Program-made: the position numbers and the translations under genes
Notes under the pieces: generated by a model
What the model was told of the DNA's origin: nothing
Seen by the model: only the letters and a program-made list of their open reading frames with translations
Databases searched by the model: none
In this document: positions 10,524 through 51,005 of the stretch, one piece after another
Numbering within the stretch: position 1 is the stretch's first letter
How the letters are laid out: each line of letters opens with the position of its first letter
NCBI GenBank assembly: GCA_027077875.1
Contig: JALWRB010000313.1
Span: forward strand, 1-52,924
Reading direction: 5' to 3'
Origin: Candidatus Heimdallarchaeota archaeon
Lineage (GTDB): Archaea; Asgardarchaeota; Heimdallarchaeia; Heimdallarchaeales; Kariarchaeaceae
Length of the DNA stretch: 52,924 bases

Positions 10524-13500
10524 CTATGAACCTCTCTTCCTACGTTTGAAAAAGTAGAAGGAGACAAAGGTGAGATACACAGCCATAATGGGGGCAGGTA
10601 GGGGATTTACTGGAGGACTAATGCCTGTGGTTATTTGGGATGTACTCTCCCCGCTCGTGTTCTTGGAAGTCGTCGTGGATGAGGAGGGAGGATTTGTTGT
10701 CTTGTCCCCTCTGCGTGCTTCCTCCAAGAGTGAGAGGAAGGACAAATAGTCACCCCTCTTGACCATATTGGCCCTGAGGAGAACATTGACCGTGATTTGA
10801 ACACTCTTCTGCAGACCGGTCGAAGGATCCCTAACTGTTACCTCCACATTATACTGCCCTGCTTCTGCAAATCTGAATGTGTTGCTTAGTTCCCTGCCAT
10901 TGGAATATGTGACAACTCCGTAGGGACCGGTGATTTTCCAGCTGTAATTTGGCCCTGTTATAACATTACCCCACTGATCCTGTCCTCTGACATTGAGGGA
11001 GAGTGAAGCACCAGCAGAGACACTGGTGAATGGCTGGACAAGTGTATAGTTCGTGGGGTTGTCTGTACTTGGATCCACATTACGCTCAAACCGTTTGACA
11101 TTGACGAAACGCAATTCTGGACTCCGGTCCTCGACGAAATAACCACTTATGATGTAGAATTGTGTGTCTAAACCATCAGACATCTGCAACGCAAGTTTTG
11201 CAGACTTCCCACCAGGTAGTGTCTGTATTGAGAATGTAGTATTCCTTCCAGTGGTCTCTGTACTTATAGGGATCCAGCTCTGTCCGTCTGGGCTGTACAT
11301 TACCTTTGAGTAAATAGTGGTCATATTCTGATAGATACTCCAGTCAATACTTACCATTTCCCCTCGCTTGAAGCCCAGTGGTTGATTCACCTCCACATAA
11401 TACTGCTGACCAGAGCTCTTTACTTCGTCCAATATCAGATTGGCTGTCCTATTAATAAGCGCGATATTCACAATCTCGCTATTGTCTTCCAATGCAATGT
11501 TGAAGAAGGAAGTGTCTACATTCTCACCTTCTGAGGTGTTGAATGAGACCCCGACTGGAATGGATATCTGTGTGGAATTGCTGTAGGTGACCTCAAGGTC
11601 GATATTTGTGTCATTGACCGGTATAAAGTCCTCGCTAGCATCATAGATTCCCTGCTGCTCGAAACTGGGGAAAAGCTTACCGGTTCCGTCGATAGATACC
11701 ATCCCAGAGACTATTCTGACGGTACTGTTGAAGAGATCCTTTGCCAAGTACTGACCGTCAGCAACGTCGAGCTGCAGTGATGATGTTGGGATCGAGGTCG
11801 CCCTCCTTCTCTGAGGGAGATTCTGTATGGCAGTAAGAAGTCTGTCCCACCTGTATGCACCGATCCACGTGCCCGGCTCCCATGGGGAGTCACAGTATGT
11901 CATGAGTTCCTTAGTATCCCGAGGTACGAGTCCAGAGTACCTGCTCCAACCCAGCTCATGAATGCTCTCATCACCATAGCGTGCATACCACTCCAAATCC
12001 CAGAGTAATGCTCCGCAACCAAATCCAAATCCTGCAGCATGCTGCCCCCACGTGTCGGAACCTAGGTTATGATTGATCTCGTGAGCCATGGTGAATTTGT
12101 CCCATGAACCACCCCACGAGGACCTTCCACTGAATCCCAGCCATTGTGGATTTGATTGTCCACCTCCTGGGAGGCTTCCAGGAATGCCGATCCCATGGAT
12201 CTGGTGTGGGTATGGTGAGTACACCCCCGAAGCCCTCCTGTCCATCAGGACAGATCGAAGTGCGGTTTCCAAACGGTTATTTATCTCCACTCCCTCGATG
12301 AAACCCAGTCCGATATCAACAAGAGGTGACTTGCTGTAAGTTCCAAAGTCTCGCCAATCAAGATTAATAAAGTTAATACTGTCAATTGGATAGATGAGCT
12401 CCATGAATTCCTGTTGTCTCTGGATAATGCTGTTTGAAGGAATGCTCGGATCACTCACGGTCCCATTATTGATGGGCATGACGTAGACATTGAACTTGCC
12501 AGAAGCTACTGGACTGAATATCCTGCTCTTTGCATTGTTGGAAATCGATGGATCGTAACTCCCGGGTTTTGGAGTTACAGTAGCTTTGAGGATAAGAACA
12601 CTGGTGTTGGTGATCACCCCGTCAAGTAGGAAGTTTGCGCTTGAGTCCAAGTTGTCACGGGCATAAGATACGGGGACTGGAAAGTCCCAGATAGTATTGC
12701 TGTAAATGGTTCTCACGCGTGCTCCGACTCCAGGTACGTTCTCTATGGTGATGACTTCCAAGGAGATTGAGGCATTCATCGAAACTGCTTGGTCATGAGA
12801 GACATACACTCTTGCAAGCGCCTCCTTTCCCCTGACAATGCGTTGGCTACTCGTGTCGTCCTGTGTGACCTGTGTCAGCTCAATTCTCGCTATTCCGAAA
12901 TTAATCGCAGGAATGTACTGATATGGTGGGATTTCATAGTATATAGTGTCAACTACACTCACGGATGGTTGTATCACACCTGAGAAATCTGGTAGATCTG
13001 GGAATCCGAATTGGGAGTCAGTTGTCTCGATAATAATACCATATTTCAACGGGATCAATCCGCTATACCCTTGGTTCGGATCAGGATTCTTCGACGGGTA
13101 TGGAATATCCATATCCATCTTCTTGAGGTCAAGCTCAAACTCGATCTGATTGGGGTAGAAGTCATCGGTTGGTGACCTGCTAATGGCAAATCTCGCCCAT
13201 GACAATACTTTTGGTACTCCATCTTCCAATTCATTGAAGGGCTTCCAGTCGCCCTTCTCAAACATGCTGGCATTCATGAAACCAATTGGGATCTCTCCAC
13301 GTTCAACTGGGATCTGAGGATTCGCAAATGGCATTTGGTAATATACCATTATGTCTCCATCTGAAGGTTTTCCATCGAGATTACGATCAAGCTGAATCGA
13401 TAGTCTTGTGATCCGGTTGAGTGGAATGTCTGATGGAATAGCAAGGGCCATGAATAAAGAAGTGCCAACAGTCTTGCTTAGTTGCCGAATTTCGACATCA

Positions 13501-49439: not shown

Positions 49440-51005
49440 ATGAGAAAGAAAGCATTTATCGTCGTCTTCTCAGTTCTGCTTATTGCCGCATTCAAGGCAC
49501 CAGTAGTCTATGGACAGACGAATGTGACAATCACGTTTTGGTACACAGAGGGCGCAATCGAGGGGGCACTCTACGACACACTCATTGCGAACTTCGAGGC
49601 AAATAACCCCGGTGTCACAGTCGACGCTCGGCAAATCGGGTACTTCGATACCGAACAGAGCTACTACAATGCCCTGATAGCAGGTACAGAGCCCAACGTC
49701 CTAAGAGCGGACGTAACATGGATCACAAATTGGGCCAATCAGAAGGTTTTCGAACCACTTGATGACTACAATTGGAATCCCAGCGACTATCTTGATGAGG
49801 CACTAAGGTTAGTTCAGTGGAGAGGAACGACCTACGGTATTCCACAGGTCGTCGATACTCTAGGCCTGATGTACAACAAACACACATTCGAGTTGGCCAA
49901 CATCAGCGTTCCAGAAGGTGGATTCACATTCGATGAATTCGCAGAGGTGGCGTATAATCTAACCGATGTGACTTCCTCAAATCAGGATGACTGGACATAC
50001 GGTTTCAACCTCGCGCACATGACTTACCACTTCCTCCCGATATTCTACGGATTCGGTGGGCAGTACTTTGACCCCAACAGTGTGAAGCAGGCAAATATCG
50101 CGCTTGATTCACAAGCGACGAGGGATGCTATCCAGTACATGGACAACCTAATTGGAAATAAGTGGCAGGATCCAACCTACCCGTATAAGGGCGTTACACC
50201 ATCAAGGGATCTGCAGACATATAGCAATCTCAATGAATTCTTTATGAACGGGAAAGTTGCCATGATTCAGCAGGGTCCTTGGGAACTGAGAAACTTTCTC
50301 GAGAACGCACCGATGTTCAACAAGACTGCGTATGAGACACTTTTCGGAGAAACTGCACCAGATTGGGTCGGTCCCGATAACCTCGGTTTTATGGAAGTTC
50401 CGAAGACCGTGCTTGATGACGGAACAACTTTTCAGGGAATGCATATAGGAGGTCATGCCTACGTGATGAGTAAGAAGGTTCCCGAGGCGAACAAGCAGAT
50501 TACCTTCGAGTTCATGAAGTACCTTGCGGGACCCGAGGCGAACTACCTCAGGGGTAAGCTTAACCACCTTGTATCTCCACTCAAGTCATTCTATACCACT
50601 GACTTTGATACCACAGATTCTTATGTCCCCGCAGAGGATCAGTATATCAAGGGATTCAGGTTAAACCTTGACAACTCTTTCCCAAGACCTGTGCATCCCT
50701 ACTTTATCACCATGGACGGGTTCTTTGCGGAAGAACTCCAGAGCCATCTTCTGGAAGAACAGGACATCGAGACCACTATTGCGAAGACCCTGACGAAATG
50801 GAACAACTACTTCTCGCAATTCGGAGAGATCGATGATCAACCCCCAACCAGTGATATAGGCACGTCTTCAGCCACAACGAGTGTTTCAGAAGCTCCCACG
50901 ATTGGAGAGTCTGAAACACAGGATACGCCACTGCAAACTTTTGTGGTCATATTGACCTTAGGGATGGTGGCACTGGTCTTCCCGCGTCGGAAGAAGCAAA
51001 TTTGA
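49440..51005 (+). CDS. Sugar ABC transporter substrate-binding protein (MalE-like, CUT1) with C-terminal anchor
   Basis: ITFWY...FEANNPGVTV, YGIPQVVDTLGLMYNK, FMNGKVAMIQQGPW and IGGHAYVM. Signal peptide without a lipobox Cys. S/T linker, TPLQ, TM and RRKK. Confidence 0.9.
   Translation: MRKKAFIVVFSVLLIAAFKAPVVYGQTNVTITFWYTEGAIEGALYDTLIANFEANNPGVTVDARQIGYFDTEQSYYNALIAGTEPNVLRADVTWITNWANQKVFEPLDDYNWNPSDYLDEALRLVQWRGTTYGIPQVVDTLGLMYNKHTFELANISVPEGGFTFDEFAEVAYNLTDVTSSNQDDWTYGFNLAHMTYHFLPIFYGFGGQYFDPNSVKQANIALDSQATRDAIQYMDNLIGNKWQDPTYPYKGVTPSRDLQTYSNLNEFFMNGKVAMIQQGPWELRNFLENAPMFNKTAYETLFGETAPDWVGPDNLGFMEVPKTVLDDGTTFQGMHIGGHAYVMSKKVPEANKQITFEFMKYLAGPEANYLRGKLNHLVSPLKSFYTTDFDTTDSYVPAEDQYIKGFRLNLDNSFPRPVHPYFITMDGFFAEELQSHLLEEQDIETTIAKTLTKWNNYFSQFGEIDDQPPTSDIGTSSATTSVSEAPTIGESETQDTPLQTFVVILTLGMVALVFPRRKKQI

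Follow-up and report, generated by a model that had tools for sequence, protein, structure and literature searches.

The window analysed here is a 52,924-nucleotide stretch of DNA (contig JALWRB010000313.1) from a Candidatus Heimdallarchaeota archaeon, and it encodes six exported proteins that end in a short C-terminal tail built from a Pro-hydrophobic element, a single hydrophobic helix, and a cluster of basic residues. These Pro-type tails form a genuine class that differs from the PGF/GFE type and is not covered by any model. They are commonest in the Kariarchaeaceae, less frequent in the rest of Heimdallarchaeia, and almost missing from the remaining classes of Asgard archaea. We put the chances at about even that Heimdallarchaeia use the tails as a C-terminal module for anchoring and sorting, expanded in this family, in which a diverged signal would be handled by the single heimdallarchaeosortase. 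The genome from which the window derives (G000; Kariarchaeaceae, Heimdallarchaeia, Asgard) is an assembly of 3.94 Mb in 539 contigs that is approximately 80% complete.

Open reading frames (ORFs) of at least 100 amino acids (aa) were called throughout this genome (n = 3401), and a tail set was assembled from those with an uncharged hydrophobic stretch, a Lys/Arg cluster no more than 16 residues from the end, and no other helices (bitopic proteins). This yielded 153 exported-type ORFs that end in a transmembrane (TM) helix and Lys/Arg residues, 128 of which begin with a hydrophobic, signal-peptide-like N-terminus. As a control, we used 424 internal helices that likewise run from outside to inside. 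Pro-Leu is the top of all dipeptides at the outer helix boundary (55 of 153 tails versus 33 of 424 internal helices; odds ratio 6.6, p 7e-15), which bears out the genome-wide enrichment predicted by an earlier note on the window. For Pro followed by either Leu or Phe (P[LF]), the proportions are 44% of tails and 8% of internal helices. P[LF] is observed in 73 tails compared to 40 ± 4.7 in within-region residue shuffles, and it is present in one of ten type-I proteins with a real cytoplasmic domain compared to 33 of 73 tails under the same filters. A hidden Markov model (HMM) was trained on 70 tails from this genome (consensus SESTTESLPLPLFPVLVALVALPVLRRRRRKSL), with a held-out seed recall in five-fold cross-validation of 39% (15 bits) to 70% (10 bits). 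When the proteome is scanned with this model, as the earlier note had proposed, 91 proteins match at 10 bits or more, including 27 non-seeds, and every match is C-terminal with none internal. The boundary enrichment, the shuffles, the type-I control, and the specificity of the HMM therefore indicate that the tail observation holds genome-wide, and the class accounts for approximately 3% of the ORFs called. Two of 150 scanned tails are false positives of the filter, being the C-termini of TrpC-like and MoaB-like cytoplasmic enzymes.

The six tails of the window are all located at the gene ends to which the earlier note had assigned them. In five of the proteins, an S/T-rich linker leads into x-Pro-Leu, a hydrophobic helix, and a Lys/Arg cluster that is followed directly by the stop codon, and the boundaries read PLP, PLN, PLL, PLE, and PLQ. 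A signal-peptide-like N-terminus is evident in six of six tail-bearing proteins, and an S/T-rich linker precedes each tail. Tail NPLPAPIMAVYLTFVSFYFFKRRKRGS (10527-10607, minus strand) terminates a 1061-aa exported protein (gene 10524-13709) and scores 17.4 bits with the tail HMM, with no NCBIfam match. Tail TLPLNFVWMVGAFITSSVLTMVIRKKRKGIGH (23581-23676, minus strand) terminates a 638-aa exported protein (gene 23578-25494), also with no NCBIfam match. This protein was left out by the single-helix filter, which counted an extra hydrophobic segment, presumably an internal stretch rich in Ile and Val. Three further tails, given here with their tail-HMM scores, are DSPLLLVPMLIVFAAVPIIRKRLWNPHR (42838-42921, minus strand; 25.7 bits) on a 1326-aa GH57/glucodextranase-C protein (gene 42835-46815), GLPLEIFPVFAAMIAVGVILRRKR (46909-46980, minus strand; 27.0 bits) on a 776-aa PKD-domain surface protein (gene 46906-49236), and DTPLQTFVVILTLGMVALVFPRRKKQI (50922-51002, plus strand; 25.2 bits) on a 521-aa sugar ABC substrate-binding protein (SBP; gene 49440-51005). 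The sixth tail, VFPSIGLVGILILVKRGHKD (40391-40450, minus strand), belongs to an 804-aa secreted GH57 protein (gene 40388-42802) and is a degenerate version that reads VFPS, as had been noted before. The orthologue of this GH57 protein in a sister genome (approximately 78% protein identity) ends in the full version of the tail, QAPLGIFILPVLLALPLRRRKSYS. Pfam assigns two GH57 enzymes (one with a glucodextranase C-module), a PKD-domain protein, and a sugar ABC SBP in the window, and the tail therefore occurs on unrelated exported proteins.

For comparison, the window also carries a PGF-type tail, VPGFTTFLAILALLGLGLLRRFVVKPKS (5167-5250, plus strand), at the end of an S8 protease whose ORF (1-5253) is open at its 5' end. 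Here VPGF is followed by a helix and RR, and the tail HMM gives 2.2 bits. The earlier description of this tail as a canonical PGF signal was too strong, as it falls under the cut-offs of both PGF_CTERM (14.2 versus 24.5 bits) and Heimdall-CTERM (15.1 versus 24 bits).

Residue frequencies show where the conservation lies. Pro makes up 13-19% of residues at positions -18 to -14 relative to the basic cluster, compared to 3-10% in the linker and a genome background of 3.9%. The boundary residue after Pro is, in order of preference, Leu, Val, or Phe (PL 55, PV 30, and PF 25 of 153 tails), often with another Pro 2-5 residues further on, and it varies between orthologues (SPL/SPI, TPL/TPY). Thus, the conserved element is Pro plus a hydrophobic residue. 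Of the Pro-Leu motif originally proposed, the Pro is conserved and the Leu itself is not. The residue before Pro is Val, Leu, Ala, or Phe in about half of the tails, each a poor helix N-cap. The hydrophobic stretch that follows spans 13-20 residues and gives way to the Arg/Lys cluster. As read from the sequences, the full architecture is a Sec-type signal peptide, functional domains, an S/T-rich stalk that is probably glycosylated, x-Pro-hydrophobic at the outer face of the membrane, the helix, the Arg/Lys cluster, and the stop codon.

A second Pro peak occurs three residues before the basic cluster, in 14% of the 153 tails versus 2% of internal helices. Its pattern is P-hydrophobic-hydrophobic-RRR, an example being window positions 42838-42860 (AVPII-RKR). 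A Pro near the helix end is also seen in the PGFE tails of Hodarchaeales orthologues (AVPIV-RSRK and AVPVLVY-RIK).

The possibility that an existing CTERM model already covers the tails was raised in the earlier note, and the NCBIfam searches speak against it. At E ≤ 7e-4, which we extrapolate to be about the level of the Loki-CTERM cut-off, none of 60 Pro-type tails has an NCBIfam match. Among all 150 tails scanned at this threshold, there are six matches to Heimdall-CTERM, three to Loki-CTERM, and one to PGF_CTERM, and weak matches of Loki-CTERM to the helix part appear in 17 of 150 at E ≤ 1. Eight further PL/PF tails score under every NCBIfam cut-off, reaching at most 12.7 bits with Heimdall-CTERM (NF045529). 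Loki-CTERM (NF033507) gives the tested PL/PF tails 13.4-13.6 bits for the helix alone (cut-off 19.9 bits), and PGF_CTERM (cut-off 24.5 bits) matches none of the PL tails tested. The sole NCBIfam signal among the Pro-type tails of the window is that of Heimdall-CTERM on GLPLEIFPVFAAMIAVGVILRRKR (GLPLE), at 14.7 bits and from the helix part alone. The [PS]-G-[FYW]-[ED] signature of Heimdall-CTERM is not present in the Pro-type window tails. Two PGFE tails of the same genome score 26.0 (SPGFE) and 21.7 bits with NF045529 (cut-off 24), with PGFE aligned on model positions 3-6. VPXXXP-CTERM, VPLPA-CTERM, PEF-CTERM, LPXTG, and others were also considered in the scan of 150 tails and gave nothing beyond weak helix-only matches. 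In the searchable literature, nothing was found on Heimdall-CTERM, heimdallarchaeosortase, or Loki-CTERM.

The tail class is lineage-enriched, in agreement with the lineage-specific class that the earlier note had considered possible. Among 83 genomes of the class, the tail HMM matches at least 82 proteins in the window genome, a raw count that we rejected as a fair cross-genome comparison given the recall of 39-70% and the limited number of candidates scored (up to 97 in this search and up to 26 in the Asgard search below). The medians are 17 for its own family (f1), 8 for the rest of the order, 4.5 for a Hodarchaeales-like family (f5), and 2.5 for family f7. Matches to Heimdall-CTERM number 10 in the window genome, with medians of 9 for its own family, 6 for the rest of the order, 34.5 for f5, and 10 for f7. 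The Pro-type and Heimdall-CTERM counts therefore show a reciprocal pattern between f1 and f5 (both p ~5e-5). A sample totalling 1.6 Mb from three other Heimdallarchaeia genomes has P[LF] in six of 52 C-terminal anchors, versus 71 of 153 in the window genome (p 5e-6). Conversely, tails with [GA][FYW][ED] make up 23% in a Hodarchaeales-like genome versus 5% in the window genome. The best matches to the tail HMM in other genomes read [ST]P[LF]P, helix, RRKK, and stop. Across 301 Asgard genomes, the tail is detected (E ≤ 0.01) in 56 of 70 Heimdallarchaeia versus 12 of 231 others, nearly all of the latter with one weak match each. Heimdallarchaeosortase is above its cut-off in 68 of 70 Heimdallarchaeia versus one of 231 other Asgard genomes, and the tail and this enzyme thus share their taxonomic range.

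The tails were also compared between orthologues. In four of four window proteins with an orthologue pair in the sister genome, the boundary Pro is kept (TPL/TPY, LPL/SPL, SPL/SPI, and VFPS/APL), and the linkers of these pairs cannot be aligned. Close orthologues of the SBP (65-78% identity) read TPY, SPFPY, SPFPT, and GLPLD at the boundary, so that Pro is kept in five of six sequences at 65-100% identity, with the sixth reading SWPVL. At the same place, [ST/A]PGFE is found in seven distant SBP orthologues with 40-45% identity, of which those that carry a name are labelled Hodarchaeales, and TPGF is present in one further Hodarchaeales and one Thorarchaeota orthologue. For the large GH57 protein (42835-46815), orthologues with 78% and 64% identity retain each of the three Pro residues in the tail, and the boundary Pro is kept in three of three close sequences (SPL, SPI, and TPF). 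Its Hodarchaeales-type orthologues carry APAFE and SPGFE, and that of a Lokiarchaeon carries AGFS. Because the Pro-type tail occupies the Heimdall-CTERM position in the orthologues of both proteins, it appears to be a diverged counterpart rather than an independent second system. From these alignments, the tail looks to be the Kariarchaeaceae counterpart of Heimdall-CTERM ([PS]-G-F-E), having replaced that signal in orthologues. The second sorting signal envisaged in the earlier note is thus supported as a class distinct from PGF/GFE but not as an independent signal.

Only one candidate enzyme of the exosortase family is encoded in the window genome. TIGR04178 identifies a single gene (C281:4949-5680, minus strand), which is a heimdallarchaeosortase according to NF045528 (209 bits, cut-off 130). 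PF09721 (Exosortase_EpsH) finds nothing in this genome, a null result that reflects a failure of sensitivity rather than absence, because TIGR04178 and NF045528 both match. No ArtA was found in the approximately 80% complete assembly, where TIGR04125 matches the heimdallarchaeosortase alone (20.6 bits versus a cut-off of 75), and archaeosortase A is therefore not supported as the partner that had been suggested for the PGF tail. Residues C122, R163, and H190 are invariant in 65 aligned sortases (that of the window genome plus 64 relatives) and, by analogy with other archaeosortases, are probably the catalytic residues. A member of the exosortase family is present in 82 of the 83 class genomes. 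Of the 11 other genomes in the family, nine have exactly one such gene, and two of these nine are 93-94% complete; of the remaining two genomes, one has two genes and one (63% complete) has none. These single-copy counts therefore do not support the dedicated second paralogue that the earlier note expected. The 65 loci flanking sortase genes contain just 13 C-terminal anchors and no match to the tail HMM, and hence the substrates are not clustered with the sortase gene and these loci were of no use for statistics on the motif.

Several other features of these enzymes and their surroundings were observed. The sortase of the window genome has Ile41, Ser140, and Asn191 at positions where at least 92% of the 65 aligned sequences have Thr, Ala, and Asp, and Asn191 adjoins the invariant His190. 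All three residues are also found in the 79%-identical sister sortase (P0157), and Asn191 is common to two sortases at 65% identity (P0158 and P0164). P0164 and the SBP orthologue with the SPFPY tail come from one metagenome sample. On the basis of this alignment, the three residues may mark a shift in specificity in the lineage of the window genome. Adjoining the heimdallarchaeosortase gene is a gene for a polytopic membrane protein of 229-237 aa with no Pfam match (C281:5718-6431, minus strand), which may be a sortase partner. It recurs in five loci, namely those of the window genome, the sister genome, and three other Kariarchaeaceae-like loci, with coordinates elsewhere of L076:9212-9955, L078:10769-11431, L079:4745-5419, and L180:9274-9963. 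In family f7 (e.g. G071-G081), the exosortase-family domain is found in open frames of approximately 490-510 aa, or twice the usual length. Genomes of family f3 usually have a second exosortase-family member of 340-360 aa besides the 245-aa heimdallarchaeosortase.

If the tails are a sorting module, the helix and basic cluster would first act as a stop-transfer anchor with the N-terminus outside, as read from the sequence by the positive-inside rule. The Pro-hydrophobic boundary would then be recognised by the sole exosortase-family enzyme (C281:4949-5680), which presumably would cleave the helix away and attach the protein to a membrane lipid instead, in the manner of archaeosortase A acting on PGF-CTERM proteins. 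A bolder proposal is that the heimdallarchaeosortase of Kariarchaeaceae has a relaxed or shifted specificity, processing both [PS]GFE and a minimal x-Pro-hydrophobic signal, with approximately 100 proteins per genome lipid-anchored by one enzyme. We regard this specific proposal as tentative and rather doubtful.

A number of considerations weigh against sorting by the single enzyme. The motif, one Pro and one hydrophobic residue, is low in information. It is loosely spaced from the basic cluster (13-23 residues), in contrast to the strict spacing of 18-19 residues, as counted from the sequences, in the PGF(E) tails that this genome also encodes (seven plus that of the protease). In Haloferax, permuting PGF to PFG already blocks processing by ArtA (PMC6098224), and a sortase that strict would not be expected to accept a signal of such degeneracy. 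The approximately ten canonical GFE-type proteins of the window genome could by themselves explain why the sortase is retained. The shared range of tail and enzyme is not phylogenetically independent evidence because it involves one clade and one evolutionary event. Finally, the tail HMM was trained on the window genome and inflates its count there, with held-out recall of just 39-70%, and the lower G+C content of the sampled relatives (30-36%, compared to approximately 46% in the window genome) favours Lys over Arg, which overstates the contrast.

The alternative that survives best, which we consider quite possible even if somewhat improbable, is that the tails are permanent, uncleaved type-I anchors in which the boundary Pro has a structural role, either at the helix start or as a break between stalk and helix, that this lineage happens to favour. 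The GFE motif would have been lost, and the proteins would then stay anchored by their helix. The degenerate motif, the variable spacing, the strictness of ArtA (PMC6098224), and the existing set of approximately ten GFE substrates for the sortase are all as expected under permanent anchoring. Plain anchors are also common, given that the motif-free share of C-terminal anchors ranges from about one third to over one half across all genomes sampled. However, a structural role should be apparent in other out-to-in helices, where P[LF] reaches just 8% (and one of ten type-I proteins), and in other lineages, where it is found in just six of 52 tails of three other Heimdallarchaeia. The frequent placement of Val, Leu, Ala, or Phe before Pro does not suit an N-cap, and Pro is retained across orthologues amid drifting surroundings. 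An explanation of the Pro as a helix N-cap is thus weakened by the internal-helix, type-I, and preceding-residue comparisons.

We consider it unlikely that the tails belong to a second, independent pathway with its own enzyme. That enzyme might be a sortase paralogue that the 80%-complete assembly lacks, or else a non-homologous protease, the candidates being rhomboids, CPBP-type proteases, and the membrane protein adjoining the sortase. Two motif classes do coexist in the same genomes across the class, and the 237-aa polytopic protein does adjoin the sortase in five loci. In bacteria, the sorting of GlyGly-CTERM and MYXO-CTERM proteins is carried out by enzymes of the rhomboid and CPBP families, and the window genome has two rhomboid and five CPBP-family genes. 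Yet these proteases are near-universal and nothing connects them to the tails, no second exosortase-family gene is found in the window genome or in nine of 11 other family genomes, and the tail replaces Heimdall-CTERM in orthologues rather than being added to it. An artefact of composition or ORF calling, in which Pro-rich linkers abut hydrophobic helices by chance, is very improbable: S/T/P-rich linkers do precede the helices and the G+C content is above that of sampled relatives, but Pro is more frequent at the boundary than in the linker, P[LF] exceeds its frequency in shuffles, HMM matches are exclusively C-terminal, and the same motif is found in low-GC relatives.

Among known systems, the closest is Heimdall-CTERM (NF045529) with heimdallarchaeosortase (NF045528). 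Both tails are tripartite and located at the extreme C-terminus of Sec-exported surface proteins, they share taxon, genomes, and even orthologous proteins, the window genome encodes an intact partner enzyme, and the Pro near the helix end is shared with Hodarchaeales PGFE tails. The differences are that the Pro-type signature is x-Pro-hydrophobic without a Gly-Phe-Glu core, that no Pro-type tail reaches the cut-off, that spacing is looser, and that the two are reciprocal in their abundance between families. PGF-CTERM (TIGR04126) with archaeosortase A likewise combines motif, helix, and basic cluster, with Pro opening the motif, and the proposed mechanism is alike; cleavage and lipid attachment have been demonstrated for it in Haloferax (PMC6098224). 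Unlike that system, the Pro-type motif has no Gly-Phe, ArtA is not found in the window genome, and there would be approximately 90-100 substrates, compared to 1-52 predicted per ArtA genome (PMC6098224). Loki-CTERM (NF033507), an orphan Asgard sorting domain, is also an Asgard-specific tail with a helix and basic cluster, but its approximate cut-off level is reached by just three of 150 tails and by none of the 60 Pro-type tails. Plain archaeal TM anchors, exemplified by Sulfolobus SlaB (cited in PMC6098224), share the signal peptide, a stalk rich in S/T, and a single helix followed by a short basic stretch on the cytoplasmic side. They are without a conserved boundary motif, whereas the Pro-hydrophobic element of the window genome is enriched, conserved among orthologues, and lineage-specific.

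As annotated by current pipelines, approximately 100 surface proteins per Kariarchaeaceae genome are left without an anchoring label, and an HMM of the tail would flag the exported surface proteins of a lineage near the eukaryotic stem. The tail also indicates cell attachment, as opposed to release, for the binding proteins and starch-degrading enzymes encoded in the window. The question posed is whether one archaeosortase-type enzyme serves two very different signals or whether anchoring has been swapped from lipid to helix within one set of orthologues, and both outcomes would be informative about the construction of Asgard cell surfaces. If the relaxed-specificity proposal were true, no larger set of archaeosortase substrates would have been predicted so far; all of the alpha-glucan capture machinery would belong to it, and signal and enzyme would have drifted in concert.

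The alpha-glucan locus of the window (36752-52924) encodes a phosphorylase, GH77, two secreted GH57 enzymes, the PKD protein, the SBP, and ABC permeases, and all exported members carry C-terminal anchors. The locus is syntenic in the sister genome and rearranged in two more distant relatives (loci L187, L138, and L184). Elsewhere in the genome, small tandem families of paralogues encode exported proteins of 192-195 aa on contigs C312 (1425-2003 and 3343-3921) and C319 (9825-13344). Each of these paralogues carries a Pro-type tail (DTPI/DTPV and EAPV/ETPI), which indicates recent duplication of tail-bearing genes.

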